Shown here in pieces: positions 3,952-58,522 of a DNA stretch of 64,000 nucleotides. The stretch covers positions 2,326-66,325 of the forward strand of contig CAMYYT010000002.1 of assembly GCA_947303585.1 (NCBI GenBank). Reading direction: 5' to 3'. Position 1 is the stretch's first letter; each line of letters opens with the position of its first letter. Below the pieces are notes generated by a model. That model was not told the origin of the DNA, ran no database searches, and saw only the letters and a list, made by a program, of their open reading frames with translations. The DNA is from an uncultured Pseudomonadota bacterium (GTDB lineage Bacteria; Pseudomonadota; Alphaproteobacteria; Rs-D84). Position numbers and translations under genes: made by a program.

Positions 3952-5199
3952 TTAACGAACGGATGCGCTAATATTTTGTGTGCTTTTACTTGTGGCGGAT
4001 GTTCCAGGATTTACGGTTTTAGGTTGTTCTGTCCTTATTCCACGAAGTCCCAATACACAATATTGAAAATCTTCTGGGTCGGTTTTAGACCAGCATTGTG
4101 AACCATTGTTGCCCATAACACCAAATCTTAATTGTTCTTCGCTTAATGTCACTGTGCACCTTTGGTAATTTGATGATGCACTGGTCCCAGTAAACGGACA
4201 ATCATATTGTCCTTGTTCAACAGAACTTTTCCAAAAGTTCCCCCCAGGACAGAATTTTTTTGGATTGCTGCATTTCTGTTGTTGAACACTATTTGCCGGC
4301 AAATAGTAACCCTTGGTAACTTTTATAGATGTTTCTACGCACTCCGTATGGTCAGCATTAGCTTTGGTTCCAATCGGGCATTTATCACACCCATCACCAT
4401 AACCATTTGCAACATAATGTTCATCATCAAAACCATGCTCACTTGTGCAGGCGTCTTTAGGTAAAAGCTTCCCTTGGTCTACGCCTGATGCTTTATGCCA
4501 ACCCCCAAGTTTTTCGGAACCCAAACAAACATATCCCGAAGGACAAGGTGCGCATTCTTCTGTGTCTGCAGGAAGGTACGAACCGGCTAAACATTTTATA
4601 GCTCTCTCAACACATTCTGTTTGAGCTGCGTTTGGTTCTGTCCCATCTGGACACGATTCCACACCCTGATCTTCATCTTTTGGTGTTACCTTTACTTTGG
4701 TTCCAGGGCAATAATAGTTTCTAAGAGCTGGGTCCGCTTTTTCGCAATCTAAACAAAAAACACTATCTTTACAGAACACACATTCACTTTTTCCCCTTGG
4801 TAAATAGGATCCTGGGTCGCATACCAACTCTTTATAGTAAACTTTATCATCAGTAAAAATTGATTTGTAATAACATTGATCCTTCCTGCTTGAGCCTGCA
4901 TCAGAATATGGAAAATCTGCAGGGCATAAACGCCAACCACCACCATGCGTACCCCAGCTAGGCCACCTGTTCGCGCATCCGTCTTCAAACTGGCCTATTG
5001 TAACAGCTTGGTTCCCCCCGCCCTCGCAATAACATCCCGGTTTACACATGTGCCGTTGAGTGTTTAGGCAGACATAACCCGCAGGTGCTTTTTTGTTATT
5101 GCTATTACAGTATGTTGCTGTTGCATACGATGGAACGACTTGTCCGGCCGACGCCATTGTTGCGATACCTAACATCAAAAATGTACGTTTTGTGAACAT
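3952..5199 (-). CDS. Secreted cysteine-rich repeat protein (furin/ephrin-receptor-like repeats); paralog of the giant protein at 41837-47821
   Basis: Signal peptide MFTKRTFLMLGIATMASA. Repeated C..G.YLP....C..CP.G..C modules and a CPADFPYSDAGSSRKDQCYYK motif also present in the 1994-aa protein. Confidence 0.7.
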   Translation of the reverse strand: MFTKRTFLMLGIATMASAGQVVPSYATATYCNSNNKKAPAGYVCLNTQRHMCKPGCYCEGGGNQAVTIGQFEDGCANRWPSWGTHGGGWRLCPADFPYSDAGSSRKDQCYYKSIFTDDKVYYKELVCDPGSYLPRGKSECVFCKDSVFCLDCEKADPALRNYYCPGTKVKVTPKDEDQGVESCPDGTEPNAAQTECVERAIKCLAGSYLPADTEECAPCPSGYVCLGSEKLGGWHKASGVDQGKLLPKDACTSEHGFDDEHYVANGYGDGCDKCPIGTKANADHTECVETSIKVTKGYYLPANSVQQQKCSNPKKFCPGGNFWKSSVEQGQYDCPFTGTSASSNYQRCTVTLSEEQLRFGVMGNNGSQCWSKTDPEDFQYCVLGLRGIRTEQPKTVNPGTSATSKSTQNISASVR

Positions 5200-41643: not shown

Positions 41644-41719
41644 GGGGTTGTAGCTCAGTTGGTAGAGCACTTGCATGGCATGCAAGGGGTCGTCAGTTCG
41701 AGTCTGATCAGCTCCACCA
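41644..41719 (+). tRNA. tRNA-Ala (anticodon GGC)
   Basis: GGGGTTG acceptor with G3:U70, anticodon loop ATGGCAT, T-loop TTCGAGT, CCA encoded. Confidence 0.85.
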
Positions 41720-41728
41720 AAAAGTTAT

Positions 41729-41806
41729 GGCGGGTGTAGCTCAGTTGGTTAGAGCGTCGGTTTGTGGTACCGAATGTCGCCAGTTCGAATCTGGTCACCC
41801 GCCCCA
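41729..41806 (+). tRNA. tRNA-His (anticodon GTG)
   Basis: Extra G-1 before GCGGGTG acceptor, anticodon loop TTGTGGT, discriminator C, CCA encoded. Confidence 0.85.
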
Positions 41807-41838: not shown

Positions 41839-44800
41839 AATTACCAGTTCGTATTTGCCATTTGATTTTATAACCTGTCCGGGCAGTTGCGCTGCTTGGT
41901 ATAGTCAAATGTTCATCATAATAACATTGATTGGTTTCCAGATTATTATTTCCATCATACCAAGTAATGCTGTAAGAATTCGGATTGCAAGGTGGTGCAG
42001 AATTTGGACCATAACTTCCAAACAAAGCGGTTTCGTATTCGCCATTTGAATTTTCTGGTTGGAAAAGAACTTGTATGCACCGTTCTGTGCAAGTTGTCGC
42101 ACAGCTGTTTTGGTCTCCAAAAGCATCCCAATACACCCAATTTGTATCACTGACACTCACTGCAGACGAACCATTAAGATGATATCCGGTCATATTGCAC
42201 CAACATTCTTTGCCAACGCTTAATGTATTAAATGTTCCATTGGTTTTCGGTTCAAACAAATCACCAGATGTAGAATTGCATGACGAACGTCCTTGGATTT
42301 TTGTTCCATTACTGTACACCAATTCAAAAGTTCCTTTGTTCAAACTCGTTGCATCGCCACCAAAGAATTCACCCGTTCCGCTTTGGGTTGAACTATCATT
42401 AGATTTAAATTTGGTTGCAGACAAATTCAAATTTCTAGATGCGTTTATGTAATTAACCAACGGACCATCTGACCAGGGGGTTGTTGCAGTATAACCAGCA
42501 TTGCAGGTAAATGAAGATATAGCACATGCGCCGATTGATTCTGTTTGGGCAACTGTTCCTGGATCGTATATTCTGGTTGCGGCAGTACTGTTTGCATATG
42601 TCACATTCGCACCACGCACAGGATTTATTACCGAACATAAAAGTGTCGCAGGAGATCTGTAGCAGAAAGCAACATCCCTGCTGCCAGCGTCAGAATATGG
42701 GAATTCGCTTGGGCAATCAGATAAACCTTGGGCAAAACTTACTTTTTCCCAAGTTCCGCCAGGGCACCAATGGTTTTGGGGACATGTTGCACACACTGTT
42801 GCATTTGCCGGTAAATATTCACCAGGTGCGCAAGTATACGTTGGTACCGGTGCACCACAAGATTTATTCATCCCAAATGAACCAAATTCGGGTGCTAAGG
42901 CAAGCTGCATGGCACATGCGTTTGCACATTTTTTTTCACAGATACTTATATCAATAAAGTCAGTTTTGAATAGTCTTTCTGCGGGATTTACGGATACTGT
43001 ATTGCCGCTGCCAATTTTATAACTTGTTAAATCGCAATTACAATCATATTTTCCGTTGGCATTAACAGCACACGAAGCGGTTCCGGTAATATCCAATTCA
43101 TTCCAATATACTAACCTGAATGTTCCATTTGTCATGCCGGTTGAATCTCCATAATTCCCGTTAGCACCGCTGCTGTTGTCACTACTGCCATCTATTGCAC
43201 GGTAATAAATATTATGGTTAGAAGTCGAGCTTGGCATACCATACAATGGCGATTCATAATTTGCCAAAGGTCCATCAGTTCCAACTAAAACTTCGCCTGC
43301 ATTACTGCAAGTTGCACCAGTCACCGCACAACCACCAAATGGGGTAACCACACTTCCGCCACCATAATAGTTTCTTTGTGTCACAGGACTGTTCGCATAA
43401 GATACAGATGTCGTATTTAATATTTTCACAAGCGTCGAACAGTCTACGCCTGTTTTATCGTAATAACAAAATGTAACATCTGTCGTTCCTGCATCAGAAG
43501 AAGGATGGTCATCAGGACAAGATTCTCTGCCGTAAGGTTTGTTGGCTGAGATATTGCTGGCAGGTACATCGGTAAAGCCTGGACAATAATAACCAGCCTC
43601 ACAAAGTGTACAAGTTGTTGAATTTGCCGGAAAATAATACCCGGGATCGCAAGAATAGGTTTGTTCTACGCATGCCATCTGTTCACCGTATTCCCCAATA
43701 ATATTGGTTCTGACCGTAGTGTTAGACATAAAATAGGCAACGCATTGTTCTGCGCAATTATCTGTGCAAGTAGCCGGGGACCGTATTGGTACATACACAG
43801 AATTCGCATCGTTAACAGACGTGCTGCCATTACCAATGTCATAACCCGTCATTTGACACCAGCAATACGTATCTGTGCCACCGGCTTTTGCCCCCCCAGA
43901 ATTACCAGATTTAGTTTTGGGAGTGGCTTCTTTATATTCACCAGCGCTGGTACCAGCTGTTGAATTACATGTGGCATCAAGATATATTTGGGTACCATCA
44001 CTCCACGTGATAACGGCAGTTCCATCTGTCATACCGGTTGAATCGCCAAATCCGTTTGCAACACCACTGTTTGCGCCACTGTTACCACTTGCTGCCCTAT
44101 AAAGAGTGCTACTCTTTGAAATACTGTGTGCCTGGTTGACATAGTTTGCCAATGGGCCATTTGATGATGGTTCTTTGACATATCCAGTATCACAAGACAA
44201 ACTGATAATTTCACATGCGCCAATATCTTCCGTTTCTCGACCGGCGTCACTATAAGTGATAGAGCCACTTGATGAATTTGCATAAGTCGCTGTCCCGTTT
44301 GATACAGGATTTATTTTGGAACAAGAATAACTTCCGCTGGTCGAATAACATTGTTGTAGAAAACTTGAACCTGCGTCAGAGTTTGGATATTTAACATTAC
44401 ACGCGATTTTGCCTTGATCATCACTGTCGTTATATGGATAAATTCCACCCGGACAATAGTAGTTTGCCGGACATCCGATGCAGGATGTTGCGTTTTTCGG
44501 TAAATATTGCCCCGCAGGACAAATTATTTGCATAGTTGCCGAACATTCGCCAGAACTGGCCGTCCCAGGTAAAGAATATGGTGTAGAAGTCGGACAAGGG
44601 TACAAACCTTGGTCATCGTCTTCGTCCAGTTCAACATCTGTGACACCTGGGCAATAATAATCTGATGGACAAAGCGCGCAATCTTCGGAATCAGCAGGTA
44701 AATAATAACCTGCATCACAACTGTATGTGAATCCTTGGGGACCTTTGGCACCGTATTTAAAATTACCACCATTACAAGATTTCGCCTTTGGGCAAGATTG

Positions 44801-47800
44801 ACATTTTGTACTTTTTTCTGGCAAATATTCGCCTGCCTCACATTTCGCAGCATAACAATCATCGGCACTTTTTGCACCCAAATCAGACAAAGGGTTGTTT
44901 GAATCTACTTTGGAACATTCGGACAGTCCTTGGTCTTCTTTGTCGTTAAAAGATAATCCTTTGGCACCACTGCAAAAATACCCTTCCCAACAAGGGTCAC
45001 ATTGTGTGCTGCCAGCTTTTAAAAGTTCACCTTCGGCACAATTAATTGTTGCGCTGCATTGTGTGGACGAAGTGGCACCCGCCGGTGAAAACGGTGTTGA
45101 TGTATCGCATTTCGTTATACCTTGGGTTGAAGTGTTATTGGTAAATGTCCCCCCAACACAATAATTTCCCGACGGGCATATGCTGCATACAAATGTTCCG
45201 CCCCCCAGATACGTTCCTGCCAAACAAACAAGGTTTGCCTTGCAATCGCTGCTATCGTCAGAACCAGATTCCGAGAACGGGCTTGTTGTTGGGCATTTTT
45301 CTATACCTTGGTCGTTTGTTTCGCTATATGAATATTTCCCCCCTTTGCAATAAGAACCGGATGGACAAATGTCGCATTTATCAAAGCCCATTGGCAAATA
45401 ATACCCAGTCTCGCAATCAATAGTGTCTGTCTTGGCATAACAATCACTTTCGCCTTTTGCACCCGGGTTTGAATAAGGTGCTGTTGTTGGGCATTGGCTT
45501 AAGCCCTGATCTTTATCCTGACCTTTGTAAAATCCGCCACCTTTGCAATAATATCCTCCCAAACATTCTGCGCATTCATAATCTTTATCTTTTGGCAGAT
45601 ATTCCCCAGCGTTGCAAGTGATGTCGTATATCGTGGCATAACAATCACTTTCACTTTTTGCACCCGGGTTTGAATAAGGTGCTGTTGTTGGGCATTGGTC
45701 TAAGCCATGTTCTTTGTCATCTGGGGTCCATGTGCCACCTTTGCAGTAATATTTTATCCAACATGTTTCACATTTATTGTCCTTGGATAAAAATTCCCCA
45801 GCGCTGCAAGTGATGTCGGTTGTCTTGGCATAACAATCACCATCGCCTTTTGCACCTTTATCAGAATAAGGTTTGTCATCTGGGCATTGGGTTAAACCTT
45901 GGTGGTTTTTATCGTCATACGAATAAGGGCTTTTTGTTCCATCACAATAATAGCCTTCCCAACAAGATTCACAATCTGTTTTTTCTACGGGCAAAAATTC
46001 ACCTTCGGCACAATTAATTGTTGCACTGCATTGTGTGGACGAAGTGGCACCCGCCGGTGAAAACGGTGTTGATGTATCGCATTTCGTTATACCTTGGGTT
46101 GAAGTGTTATTGGTAAATGTCCCCCCAACACAATAATTTCCCGACGGGCATATGCTGCATACAAATGTTCCGCCCCCCAGATACGTTCCTGCCAAACAAA
46201 CAAGGTTTGCCTTGCAATCGCTGCTATCGTCAGAACCAGATTCCGAGAACGGGCTTGTTGTTGGGCATTTTTCTATACCTTGGTCGTTTGTTTCGCTATA
46301 TGGATATTTTCCCCCTTTGCAATAAGAACCAGCAGGACAAGTTCTACAATCGGAGTATGAAAAGGCCGGCAAAAATTCACCCGCTTTACATGTGACCGTG
46401 TCAAAGCAAGAATTTTCATCCGAAGCGCCGATTTTTGAGTAAGGTGCTGTTGTTGGACATTTTTCTATACCTTGATCTTTGGTATTATCAACCGTAACAC
46501 CCTTAATACCACTGCAATAAGAACCAATCGGACAAATGACGCATTTGTTATCGCCTTTGGGTAAATAAGACCCAGTGTCACAACCAATAGTGTCTGTCTT
46601 GGCATAACAATCACCTTTGCCTTTTGCACCTTTATCAGAATAAGGTGTTGCCTCTGGACATTGGTTTAAGCCATGTTCTTTGTCATCTGGGGTCCACGTG
46701 CCACCTTTGCAGTAATAATTTGCCCAACATGTTTCACATTTATTGTCCTTGGATAAAAATTCCCCCGCACCGCAAGTGATGTCGGTTGTCTTGCCATAAC
46801 AATCACCTTCGCCTTTCGCACCTTTATCAGAATAAGGTGCTGTTGTTGGGCATTGGGTTAAACCTTGGTCGTTTTTATCATCATACGAATAAGGGCTTTT
46901 TGTTCCATCACAAAAATATCCTTCCTGACAATCTGTGCACTGAATACCACCTTTCGCCAAAAATACACCGGCACCACAATCAATTGTCGCGCTGCATTGT
47001 GTGGACGAAGTAGCGCCGTCCGGTGAAAACGGTGTCGCGGTATCGCATTTCGTCATACCTTGGGTTGCGGTGTTATTGGTAAATGTTCCGCCACTGCACC
47101 AATAACCAGCCGGACAAGTTGAACAGGTTAGCATGCTTTCCCCCAGATACGTTCCTGCCAAACAAACAAGGTTTGCCTTGCAATCGCTGCTATCGTCAGA
47201 ACCAGATTCCGAGAACGGGCTTGTTGTTGGACATTGTTCTATACCTTGGTCGCCTGTTTCACTATATGGGTATTTTCCCCCTTTGCAATAAGAACCTGCA
47301 GGACAAGTTTTACAATCAGAGTATGAAAAGGCCGGCAAAAATTCACCATTCTTACATGTGGTCGTGTCAAAGCAAGAATTTTCATCTGAAGAGCCGATTT
47401 TTGAGTAAGGTGCTGTTGTTGGGCATTTTTCTATACCTTGGTCTTTGGTATTATCAACCGTAACACCCTTAATACCACTGCAATAAGAACCAATCGGACA
47501 AATGACGCATTTGTTATCGCCTTTGGGTAAATAAGACCCAGTGTCACAACCAATAGTGTCTGTCTTGGCATAACAATCACCTTTGCCTTTTGCACCTTTA
47601 TCAGAATAAGGTGTTGCCTCTGGACATTGGTTTAAGCCATGTTCTTTGTCATCTGGGGTCCACGTGCCACCTTTGCAGTAATAATTTTCCCGACACGTTT
47701 CGCATCCGCCTTCTTTACTTAAAAATTCCCCCGCGTCACAAGTGATGTCGGCACCAAATGCATTAAATGTAAACAAACTAAACAAAGCCAAAAGTGGCGT

Positions 47801-52575: not shown

Positions 52576-52682
52576 ATTTCTTGATTTGATTAATAATCTG
52601 TCTGTTGAGAAAGGTAAACACTATAATTTATGGAAAATGCAAAGCGGTGGTTTTTTCCAAGAAAAATAAACAGAAAAACAAA

Positions 52683-52703
52683 AAAGCCCCAAAAAGGGGC
52701 TTT
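52683..52703. terminator. Bidirectional terminator
   Basis: AAAGCCCCaaaaaGGGGCTTT flanked by U-tracts on both strands. Confidence 0.65.
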
Positions 52704-52715
52704 GTTACAGTTTTA

Positions 52716-53753
52716 TTACAATGTTGGTGTTAAAATATCTTGCATCTTTTTTATTTCTGCTGCGTTTTTGTTAAATAGACCTGTTGTTTTCATTTTTGCC
52801 AGTTCTATTTTTAATTGCTTTAACATCGTGCTTTGTTTGTCGTTTGTTGCTTGCAAACGATTCATTTCTTCAACCAATTTTTCGTTTTTATATTGAAGTT
52901 CTTCTTTCTCTTTACTCGTTTCGTCTAACATATTGTTGTATTGGTTGCTAATAGAGTCTTTTTCACGTGTTATTTCTTCTATACTATTACGAGCTGTTTG
53001 TAATTGTTGTTTTGTTTCTACAAGCTCTTCTTCCAAGGATTTTTGTGTGTTCGCCATGTATTCCGGGATGTTGGCAGACAAAATTTTATTAATATCAAAT
53101 TCTTTTTTTATTAGTTTTACATAATCTGGTTCTGATTCATCCAAAGGCTGTATTGCAAATTTTGCACTATCAGAAATGTTTTTCAAATTTTCAGGATTTG
53201 GAAAATCTTTGTGCATTTCTTTATCTAATTCTTGTTTACACATTTCGATTACTGTACGAATAAGGTTTTTATCACGAGAGTTCAAAGCAAGTTGAGACTT
53301 GAAACTTAGTGGCGCCAAAGGATTATTAATAATTAAAGTGCTGACAATTTTTGCATTTTTTTCACCAATTCTTTTTGAATCTGGTGTAATTTGTCGCAAA
53401 ATACTATATTGATTTTTTTCATCAAACATAGGCAGTTTGTTTAATACCAGCAATACAGAATTTTCATCGGGTTTTTCATCAAAGATACATTTAATAAAAT
53501 TCCAATAAGCCTTGAAATCTTGGGCATATTGTGATTCTGGGTTTTTATAGCAATTATATATATGTTTCCAAATATTGTTATATGTCGCATCTTGCGTATC
53601 CGTGTAACGTTCTAGTTCTTTTTCGTTCGACGGACCGTTATATGCATTTTTTCTGAATAATTCATCAATATATTCAACAAAACCTAAGGTGCGGTCAGTA
53701 CCAAATAAATCTTTGGTAAACTTATTTTTATCAAAAGTTACTTCCTGTGTCAT
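52716..53753 (-). CDS. Hypothetical protein with C-terminal coiled-coil (no signal peptide)
   Basis: 345-aa ORF. C-terminal about 90 aa heptad-rich (LEEELVETKQQLQTARNSIEEITREKD...). Confidence 0.5.
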   Translation of the reverse strand: MTQEVTFDKNKFTKDLFGTDRTLGFVEYIDELFRKNAYNGPSNEKELERYTDTQDATYNNIWKHIYNCYKNPESQYAQDFKAYWNFIKCIFDEKPDENSVLLVLNKLPMFDEKNQYSILRQITPDSKRIGEKNAKIVSTLIINNPLAPLSFKSQLALNSRDKNLIRTVIEMCKQELDKEMHKDFPNPENLKNISDSAKFAIQPLDESEPDYVKLIKKEFDINKILSANIPEYMANTQKSLEEELVETKQQLQTARNSIEEITREKDSISNQYNNMLDETSKEKEELQYKNEKLVEEMNRLQATNDKQSTMLKQLKIELAKMKTTGLFNKNAAEIKKMQDILTPTL

Positions 53754-56904: not shown

Positions 56905-56930
56905 AAGCACCGCATCCGCGGTGTTTTTTT
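56905..56930 (+). terminator. Rho-independent terminator
   Basis: CACCGCatcCGCGGTG + TTTTTTT. Confidence 0.65.
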
Positions 56931-57020
56931 AAAGTAAAAAAATTCCTAAATATCAATTTTAGTTGTTGCAAAAAAAATTGCATATCATTATAATTACAAA
57001 AGTAAGAGAGAAAAAGAACG

Positions 57021-58226
57021 TTGATGAAAGTGCTTTTTACATCGATTTTTGCGCTGTTCTTGGCGACTTCAGCGTGGGCCACAGGCGAATTATCGGCGCC
57101 TGCCACTTGTAATACCACGGATCTAGGGGTCAGTTCTGGTACATTAAATGTAGATTTGGTATGGGAAGCAAACAGAATAAACACATCGTGGTATACTGGA
57201 TACGGCGATAATACACAAATAACGGGTGCAAACATCCCAACTTCTTGTAATTACGATTCGGCAATATCTTTGCCTGCTGCGCCATCGCGTCCAGGGTATA
57301 ATTTTGTTGGTTGGACATTAAAATGTTCTTTGCCACCGTTAGATTCGTCAGATACGGGAACAGATTACGGTTATATAAATGGGGACAGCCCGGAACCTTA
57401 TGCAGATAATGCACAAACATATGGGTTAACACAGCCACAAACTTGGGGTGCGACGTTTGTACCTGGAAAAATGACGGGAAGTGCGATGTGCAGTGCTTAC
57501 GCTGGAAATAATCATAATTATGCATGGGGCGGAACATCTTCTGATTGGACGGCAGATACAGCAACTTTGACTGGGACTAGTGGAAGTGCTACCTATTGTT
57601 GGTGTCGCGTTGATGCCTTTACACCAACCAGTGGGCAATGGTGTGATTTTTCACCACAAAAATGGGTGTTTAACCACGGGTTTAATTCGACAACGGGCTG
57701 TTCAGAGGCTTGCGCATCAGAATGCACACAATCATTGCGTGGTATATTAGAATTCCGTGCCGCAGTATACGCCGCCGCTACGCCTGTTTCTGTATGTCGG
57801 ATACCTGCTGCAGTCGCGGCACAAGATATAGGTACTGCAATGGCAGCTAAAAGCTTTTTGGGTGACGCATATAACAATACCTATGGTGGTGCGACACCTG
57901 AAACATATGGTCTGACTCAGGCTGGGCAATGGGGTGTGTCGTGGCAGACTGGTGACAAAGTTGTAGGAGAAGCAATGTGTAGTGCTTCTTCAAGTGGGGT
58001 TCCTGTTGCTTCTACTGGAAATGAAGCTGCGAATTGTTGGTGTAAAGCAACTGGTTATATTTCCGCGAGTAATTCACAGTGTTCTTTTTCTGATTCTTCT
58101 TGGGTCTTGATAAATAATAATGGTGCGGAATATTGTTTACAATGGTGTACATATGAGTGTGCTAACTATGTTAGAACATGGGAAGATATTCGTGTGATGA
58201 TATTAAACGGTCTTTTTGCTCAATAA
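57021..58226 (+). CDS. Secreted cysteine-rich protein sharing the CWC module with the C-terminal half of the giant protein
   Basis: Signal peptide MMKVLFTSIFALFLATSAWA. Motifs ATYCWCRVDAF...QWCDFSPQKWV and AANCWCKATGYIS...CSFSDSSWV parallel TYCWCQMTGYDIG / ECWCNMTGYHLNG in the giant protein. Confidence 0.65.
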   Translation: MMKVLFTSIFALFLATSAWATGELSAPATCNTTDLGVSSGTLNVDLVWEANRINTSWYTGYGDNTQITGANIPTSCNYDSAISLPAAPSRPGYNFVGWTLKCSLPPLDSSDTGTDYGYINGDSPEPYADNAQTYGLTQPQTWGATFVPGKMTGSAMCSAYAGNNHNYAWGGTSSDWTADTATLTGTSGSATYCWCRVDAFTPTSGQWCDFSPQKWVFNHGFNSTTGCSEACASECTQSLRGILEFRAAVYAAATPVSVCRIPAAVAAQDIGTAMAAKSFLGDAYNNTYGGATPETYGLTQAGQWGVSWQTGDKVVGEAMCSASSSGVPVASTGNEAANCWCKATGYISASNSQCSFSDSSWVLINNNGAEYCLQWCTYECANYVRTWEDIRVMILNGLFAQ

Positions 58227-58321
58227 GATAGTTTTTTAATTGTATTTTTACCATAAAATTAAGATTTTATCCGTTCGAAATCACGGGTAAGAATATCCCA
58301 TAAAAAAATTGAAAGAAATTT

Positions 58322-58349
58322 TTGCTTATTGAAAAATTTGTGATATAAT
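58322..58349 (+). promoter_or_regulatory. Promoter TTGCTT-16-TATAAT with extended -10 (TTTGTGATATAATG)
   Basis: No ORF downstream. Transcript would end at the terminator at 58464-58488. Confidence 0.45.
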
Positions 58350-58355
58350 GAAAGT

Positions 58356-58488
58356 GTGAAAGGGTAAAAAGGTATAAAAAATCATCCCGAAAACCCAACA
58401 AGATTGGTGCCGAAAGCACTTCATAAAAGATTTGGTTTTTTCCCTTCCTTAACCAAATAAATGCACCCCATACGGGGTGTTTTTTTTA
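58356..58488 (+). ncRNA. Candidate small RNA (about 130 nt) bounded by a strong promoter and an intrinsic terminator
   Basis: No ORF of 60 aa or more. Internal hairpins (AAAACCCAAC..TTGGTTTT; GGTGCcgaaaGCAC). Terminator CACCCCatacGGGGTG + TTTTTTTTT. Confidence 0.35.
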
Positions 58489-58522
58489 AATTCTCCCCAC
58501 GGGGGGCGCAGGGCGATGGGGG

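Follow-up and report, generated by a model that had tools for sequence, protein, structure and literature searches.

Secreted cysteine-rich or repeat proteins in which a conserved leader is followed by a divergent exposed part are represented by the CXXC-rich variant-specific surface proteins of Giardia and by the variable lipoproteins of mycoplasmas. The cysteine-stabilized alpha-beta (CS-alpha-beta) framework of the defensins is C...CX3C...C...CX1C, with two disulfides clamping a helix to a sheet (PMC5234102). In this study, we report a cysteine-rich module, here called the CWC module after its central motif, which is carried by two secreted proteins, one small and one giant, encoded in a 64-kb stretch of DNA (the window) from an uncultured alphaproteobacterium (Table 1). 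Its CWC segment is the core of a real extracytoplasmic domain of ~140 amino acids (aa) which is absent from the libraries searched. We propose, with moderate confidence, that this domain is the Sec-exported, disulfide-stabilized and variable binding or antigenic head of modular surface proteins.

With the CS-alpha-beta defensins and scorpion toxins the CWC module shares a CxC strand and a Cx3C helix element, which match its predicted secondary structure. However, CxC comes first and Cx3Cx3C last in the CWC module, the reverse of the defensin order, a third helix cysteine provides for a third pair, and the peptides have 35-50 aa whereas the module is three times larger (~140 aa) and lies inside large modular bacterial proteins. 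Membership in the CS-alpha-beta superfamily was rejected because the cysteine order and the size differ and neither Foldseek against the PDB nor the sequence search returned a defensin or toxin; judged by its layout, the resemblance is an analogy of design. The InlB B-repeats of the Listeria-Bacteroides proteins (Flg_new, PF09479; TIGR02543) are a co-occurring domain and the public label of CWC proteins, but they are small, cysteine-poor and beta, whereas the CWC module has a helix and six cysteines. The Ephrin-receptor-like/GCC2_GCC3 family (PF07699) and DUF7631 (PF24634) describe 65-aa units of the giant protein and of a third secreted protein of the window, encoded at 3952-5199, and not the CWC module. 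With respect to the variable surface-protein loci, the conserved leader and the divergent part are common to the CWC proteins, but here the modules appear to be exchanged in a fixed slot, the variation is seen between genomes, and this window showed neither a switching machinery nor silent cassettes or DNA repeats.

Extent, homologues and predicted fold of the CWC module

A previous inspection of the window (the sequence-only reading) had pointed out segments of about 60 aa around a CWC motif in the small protein and in the C-terminal half of the giant one, and had suggested a possible new domain. The four CWC strings that it quoted were all located, at aa 193-195 and 339-341 of the small protein and at aa 1320-1322 and 1873-1875 of the giant. 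The sharing of the module was also confirmed. BLASTP aligned the small protein, through both of its halves, with three segments of the C-terminal half of the giant (E from 6e-8 to 3e-4), and a hidden Markov model (HMM) built only from the two modules of the small protein matched the giant at aa 1262-1375, 1581-1641 and 1838-1919. This model scored 46.1 bits on the C-terminal half of the giant vs. a maximum of 2.0 in 1000 composition-matched shuffles. Thus, the module alignment holds when done computationally. The length of the segment had to be corrected, as by alignment the unit spans ~130-155 aa (~140) and begins ~80 aa upstream of the CWC motif. It opens with a hairpin, YGLT..G.W.V.F..G.V.G.A.CS, followed in the consensus by a variable loop, G.YCWC..T.Y, WVF, C...CA..CA and FR.A.FG. 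The spaced cysteines reported after the motif are indeed present, but their spacing, given as ..C..C...C.., is a fixed C-x3-C-x3-C. The small protein carries two copies and the giant three, and a six-frame HMM scan of the 64-kb window found no further ones. Both quoted segments of the giant were therefore correct but not their total, since module 2 had been overlooked because its motif reads DCNC.

Approximately 25 of the ~140 positions of the module are conserved at ≥60%, mainly cysteines, glycines and aromatics. Given that the small and giant proteins are both rich in cysteine (4.5-9.2%), the recurrence of CWC and spaced cysteines might be attributed to composition. The probability of such a chance motif is negligible: the score lies far above the shuffle maximum, the conservation reaches ~80 aa upstream of CWC into cysteine-free sequence, and 636 matches at E ≤ 1e-10 were found in the databases. 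The HMM matches, the database search and the shuffle control refute it together.

These matches come from an exhaustive profile search of the module against 1.84 billion protein cluster representatives (clusters at 50% identity), which returned 1,330 representatives with E ≤ 1e-3, of which 636 reached E ≤ 1e-10 and 53 reached E ≤ 1e-30. A profile search of all PDB sequences gave zero matches. A word-indexed search with the module alignment returned 6 proteins, far fewer than the exhaustive one. Among the curated libraries, Pfam-A (2025) and NCBIfam 20.0 (2026) had no model on the CWC module in any of the proteins scanned (3 of the window, 97 homologues and 4 homologues of the giant). The only recurrent known partner domain was Flg_new, present in 57 of the 97 homologues, and it did not overlap the CWC modules in the window proteins or in the best stretches reported for the scanned homologues. 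Foldseek searches of the PDB (whole protein and module) and of BFVD gave only noise (best E 0.4-0.6, listed TM-scores ≤0.31); the HasA hemophore, which appeared in weak Foldseek rows with a probability ≤0.06, was rejected as a fold neighbor. No literature describing the module was found by title or abstract, and the names on its relatives are only "hypothetical protein" or "InlB B-repeat-containing protein". The suggestion of a new domain is supported by these results, as no described domain accounts for the segments.

The proteins carrying the module range from 127 to 6,218 aa among the best 150 of the 1,330 matches and have 1-7 modules each (163 proteins retrieved). The module is the C-terminal domain in 115 of 176 proteins and usually the last one, downstream of InlB B-repeats and/or 65-aa cysteine-rich units. 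For the full-length small protein, only 16 relatives were found in a set of 5.8 billion proteins; each of them has the same signal peptide and N-terminal region, with 2-3 modules. Tandem arrays of up to seven copies in proteins of such length, together with a conservation mostly limited to cysteines, glycines and aromatics, would suit a rigid structural spacer which adds protease-resistant length to secreted fibers, has no ligand of its own and varies because of weak constraint outside its cysteine core. Nevertheless, we regard a spacer as unlikely, since the terminal position of the module would be unusual for it, the 65-aa units and B-repeats already fill the stalk role, and the replacement of whole modules beside 99%-identical neighbors, described below, exceeds drift at these genome distances.

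The structure prediction that the sequence-only reading had recommended gave a confident model. For the whole small protein, AlphaFold placed the two modules at a predicted local distance difference test score (pLDDT) of ~80, with a poor N-terminus, while module B, modeled from a 44-sequence alignment, reached a pLDDT of 92.8 and a predicted template modeling score of 0.88. In this model there is a short N-terminal strand (residues 15-19 of the module), followed by strands 45-49, 55-63, 80-89, 95-97 and 104-108 and by helices 111-128, with C-x3-C-x3-C, and 130-137. Strands 45-49 and 55-63 form the hairpin, which finishes in the first invariant cysteine, strand 80-89 carries CWC and strand 104-108 corresponds to WVF. 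The predicted fold is an antiparallel beta-sheet followed by a helical hairpin bearing C-x3-C-x3-C.

Six positions are occupied by cysteine in 97-100% of 150 full-length modules, in the order C...CxC...Cx3Cx3C, and 148-149 of these modules keep the Cx3Cx3C spacing. The middle residue of CWC is W in 81%, Y in 12% and N in 3%, and the loop between the first invariant cysteine and CWC has 5-48 aa. A seventh cysteine (Cys94) occurs in 44% of the modules; an N-terminal cysteine is present in all 66 modules with Cys94 vs. 38 of the 84 without it, a pattern which marks a facultative disulfide. Residues i and i+2 of a beta-strand point to one side, and residues i, i+4 and i+8 of a helix lie on a common face. 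Because the CxC strand and the Cx3Cx3C helix would each present their cysteines on one face, three helix-to-sheet disulfides are suggested, the six near-invariant cysteines of the model probably stapling the helix to the sheet. The signal peptides, the even number of invariant cysteines and the covarying facultative pair lend indirect support to a disulfide-bonded extracytoplasmic class.

The same cysteines might instead make the module redox-active or metal-binding, with CxC as a minimal thiol-disulfide isomerase site or all six binding metal ions or a cluster. The invariance of CxC and Cx3Cx3C would agree with such an activity, and a CXC peptide able to substitute for a disulfide isomerase has been reported (bioRxiv 10.64898/2026.01.27.701630). 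However, Pfam scans revealed no thioredoxin-like or other redox family, the core cysteines are even in number, the facultative pair covaries like a structural disulfide, and the proteins are Sec-exported and multi-copy, with up to 7 modules each. In addition, the modeled CxC strand faces the helix with cysteines at i, i+4 and i+8, a geometry which points to stapling. We consider a redox or metal-binding role improbable.

Variation of the slot adjoining rng

The gene of the small protein is invariably flanked by rng (RNase E/G) on one side and by a convergent gene for an HI0933-like flavoprotein on the other. This slot was compared in six related loci, in which the Rng protein is 98-99% identical at the aa level (89-97% in nucleotides, nt) and the LPG-synthase protein 95-99% identical in aa. 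The N-terminal 103 aa of the small protein show 63-95% identity. Module A is 83-87% identical in three loci and 30-38% in the rest, and module B is 35-40% identical throughout, except for 98% in one locus. The DNA alignments break off within the gene, where one module borders on the next, and restart just past the stop codon, and one orthologue has three modules. Since the identities of A and B drop separately beside a near-identical Rng, the modules have been replaced independently in a fixed slot. With regard to the genomic co-occurrence which the sequence-only reading had wished to see checked, one related contig carries the giant and small genes in matching relative positions.

No DNA repeats, pairs of the diversity-generating retroelement (DGR) type or silent cassettes were detected in the 64-kb window (blastn of the gene; no repeat >18 nt). 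A DGR target was rejected, as blastn gave no template/variable repeat pair in the window, where a reverse transcriptase was not specifically searched. Recent gene conversion within the window was also rejected, given the lack of DNA repeats.

An N-terminal region of 100 aa that is conserved and a C-terminal part that is highly variable, both in one chromosomal slot, are reminiscent of polymorphic toxins or bacteriocins, in which a delivery region precedes variable killing domains as in contact-dependent inhibition systems, Rhs and colicins. This explanation is highly improbable. The variable parts all belong to one domain family, the CWC modules, and not to unrelated toxin folds, and there is no open reading frame (ORF) of immunity-protein size, none ≥60 aa being found from the stop codon (58226) to the convergent gene (58523). 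Moreover, no toxin family appeared in the Pfam and NCBIfam scans, PADLOC not being searched.

Two observations concern the slot and its surroundings. In the rumen metagenome sample ERZ28653445, loci L004 and L007 lie on separate scaffolds and carry two variants of the CWC gene next to rng, from different alleles or different species, a pair that can be used to study the diversity of the slot within one community. In addition, a second break in the DNA alignments with L001 and L002 was seen between conserved flanks at window positions 52612-53742, which involve a gene of 345 aa (52716-53753, minus strand); L001 and L002 have at this site a gene of 394-399 aa without Pfam match, and L007 and L008 a gene of 345 aa. 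This site may be a further slot for a variable protein.

Architecture of the carrier proteins and neighboring elements

The coordinates of the three secreted proteins and of their parts are provided in Table 1. All three start with plausible Sec signal peptides, as read from their sequences; for the small protein this agrees with the secretion proposed in the sequence-only reading.

Table 1. Location of the three secreted proteins in the window, with the segments recognized in the small and giant ones.
Feature	Position	Strand	Basis
Giant secreted protein gene, 1994 aa	41837..47821	-	ORF and translation
Giant N-terminal half (aa 24-1080), with 17 Cys-rich units of 65 aa in tandem	44582..47752	-	Regex count, unit alignment
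Giant CWC module 1, aa 1225-1381; YCWCQMTGY	43679..44149	-	BLAST, HMM
Giant CWC module 2, aa 1523-1652; degenerate motif, DCNCDLTSY	42866..43255	-	HMM
Giant CWC module 3, aa 1790-1940; ECWCNMTGY	42002..42454	-	BLAST, HMM
Giant C-terminal tail, aa 1945-1994, InlB B-repeat-like	41840..41989	-	BLAST
Secreted Cys-rich protein, 415 aa, ~5 copies of the 65-aa Cys unit	3952..5199	-	ORF, BLAST, unit HMM
Small-protein gene, 401 aa	57021..58226	+	ORF call and translation
Sec signal peptide of small protein (MMKVLFTSIFALFLATSAWA / TGE cleavage)	57021..57080	+	Read from sequence
Conserved N-terminal region: motif C..x.LG...G.L..DL.W..N.I, then one InlB B-repeat (Flg_new)	57081..57329	+	Pfam
CWC module A, aa 104-258	57330..57794; CWC 57597-57605	+	HMM envelopes, alignments
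CWC module B, aa 259-401	57795..58223; CWC 58035-58043	+	HMM envelopes, AlphaFold model

The TTG start of the small gene directly precedes an ATG at 57024, which is probably the true start and would give a protein of 400 aa. This is the form held in NCBI/ENA (P0017, starting with MKVLF), on a contig of 68,201 bp which also encodes the giant protein. Upstream there are the terminator hairpin of rng (56908-56923), a promoter-like TTGCAA-17-TATAAT (56966-56994) and a purine-rich ribosome-binding site, and downstream a terminator at 58463-58480. The small gene is therefore its own transcription unit, flanked as it is by the rng terminator, the promoter-like site and its own terminator. The protein consists of the signal peptide, which is near-invariant in the orthologue alignment, the N-terminal motif with one Flg_new repeat and the two CWC modules. 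The Flg_new match (aa 69-101) barely passes its Pfam cut-off (27.5 vs. 27 bits) and is confined to the N-terminal region, that of TIGR02543 is below threshold in NCBIfam (16.6 vs. 20.95), and the AlphaFold confidence is low across this region. Module A is a long-loop variant with GNNH.YAWGG.SSDWT, and module B, at the C-terminus, a short-loop one.

Directly after the signal peptide, a motif C..x.LG...G...LEA.W..N.(I/Y) (aa 21-55 of the small protein; window 57081-57180) was noticed which recurs among the other CWC proteins, at least 46 of 166 having it. Its carriers, among them P0079, P0096, P0119, P0137 and P0163, differ widely in architecture, and their signal peptides are alike too (MKK.FLTS....PAFA). 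The motif may be a family-specific signal for export, anchoring or assembly.

The giant protein, which is identical to P0018 of NCBI/ENA, is built of a signal peptide, 17 cysteine-rich units, three super-repeats of ~290 aa and a B-repeat-like tail. Each super-repeat consists of a cysteine-rich unit, a CS.INPV..TYANS..C.I..C..GY unit, a GPLANY linker and a CWC module, so that the protein holds 20 of the 65-aa units, 17 N-terminal and one per super-repeat. The pattern of these units is CxxCPxGxYCxG...DQG..CP...PYS; Pfam DUF7631 matches them at 35 bits, and PF07699 (Ephrin_rec_like) was found on the homologue P0178. The tail aligned with aa 51-101 of the small protein (BLAST E 0.032) and is below the Pfam threshold for B-repeats; homologues such as P0079 and P0096 terminate in clear Flg_new repeats. 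The homologues of the giant are syntenic and adjoin a SIMPL-domain gene. They have 920, 1601 and 1994 aa, the number of N-terminal repeats varying and the three CWC super-repeats being always kept. The N-terminal half is made of near-identical blocks of five units (e.g., aa 23-340 and 345-660). From these blocks and the homologues of 920 and 1601 aa, the length of the stalk appears to vary by gain or loss of repeats.

With respect to the linking segments of the giant, the unit CS.INPV....TYANS....IGAC.I..L.C..GY lies at aa ~1150-1225, 1440-1520 and 1715-1790 (window region 42455-44400), has no Pfam match, and occurs also upstream of the CWC module in many homologues of 400 aa (P0079, P0096, P0119). 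Next to the 3' end of the giant gene there are genes for tRNA-Ala(GGC) and tRNA-His(GTG) (window 41644-41806), and in the related contig L005 an ORF of 194 aa without Pfam match was called at the matching position.

The protein encoded at 3952-5199 had been counted as a third member of the same family. It resembles the N-terminal half of the giant (BLAST E 3e-24; 65-aa unit HMM E 1.4e-28), with which it shares only the 65-aa unit. The six-frame HMM scan found no CWC module in it, and its best BLAST E with the small protein was 0.16. Conversely, the small protein is without 65-aa units (E 0.019 with the unit HMM, with negative domain scores), and hhalign gave no homology between the CWC module and the 65-aa unit (probability 1.3%). 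The window is thus a mosaic of modules and not a set of three members of one family, since this third protein has cysteine-rich units only.

After the small gene, a spacer of 296 bp holds a conserved non-coding element and leads to the convergent flavoprotein gene. Positions 58300-58500 (plus strand) are 88-99% nt identical in the six related loci, a conservation at least equal to that of the flanking genes. A promoter TTGCTT-N16-TGnTATAAT, a transcript of ~58350-58487, a hairpin with an invariant CU-rich loop (UUUUCCCUUCCUU) resembling an anti-Shine-Dalgarno sequence and a terminator stem in which 3 of the 6 sequences show a compensatory change from C:G to G:C were noted, and the spacer is a candidate for encoding a small RNA of ~130 nt. 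Rfam gave only a sub-threshold CRISPR-DR match on this spacer (E 0.25), which was taken as chance.

Proposed role of the module

For a variable binding or antigenic head, the explanation which we favor, the following mechanism can be proposed. After export, periplasmic oxidation would link the three helix cysteines to three cysteines of the sheet, namely the one after the hairpin and both of CxC, and this stapling of the helix onto the sheet would give a rigid, protease-resistant module. In ~44% of the modules a fourth bridge would join the N-terminal cysteine to that on the next strand. The loop of variable length and the variable N-terminal segment would form a diversifying surface, and the module would sit at the tip of stalk-like surface proteins of rumen or gut Alphaproteobacteria, as a head that binds ligands and/or is antigenic. 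The replacement of whole modules would fit selection from phages, host immunity or protists.

It must be noted that several points weigh against this proposal. Ligand binding, surface exposure and disulfide pairing are all features that we infer. The host cell is diderm, as indicated by a BamA/Omp85 homologue on related contigs, and no device for outer-membrane translocation or anchoring was found; the proteins could therefore stay in the periplasm or be released. Part of the divergence in the slot could come from relaxed constraint and not from positive selection, an identity of ~35% being too low for the ratio of nonsynonymous to synonymous substitutions. As for the breadth of the family, the named matches are six (five proteins and one locus record), all from metagenome-assembled genomes (MAGs) labeled "Alphaproteobacteria bacterium". 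The sole species-representative genome found with a relative is an alphaproteobacterial MAG from sheep rumen, and the other samples carry ruminant-study labels.

A wider proposal is that the fold is new and that the CWC proteins constitute a large family of hypervariable surface proteins with cassette-like exchange of modules at fixed slots in uncultured gut and rumen Alphaproteobacteria, which we hold to be possible but doubtful. If true, it would represent a population-level system of antigenic or receptor variation on a disulfide-stapled scaffold. The rng-adjacent slot itself offers a natural experiment on how surface proteins diversify. The domain occurs in no fewer than 1,330 clusters (50% identity), which current annotation describes just as "hypothetical" or "InlB B-repeat-containing"; with a confident model of its structure and a disulfide scheme that can be tested, it deserves at the least a family entry of its own in the domain databases. 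Metagenome bins are so far the only source of such gut and rumen Alphaproteobacteria. In this regard, if the module binds ligands of the host, of protists or of phages, it would be a first handle on the interactions of these bacteria with their surroundings.

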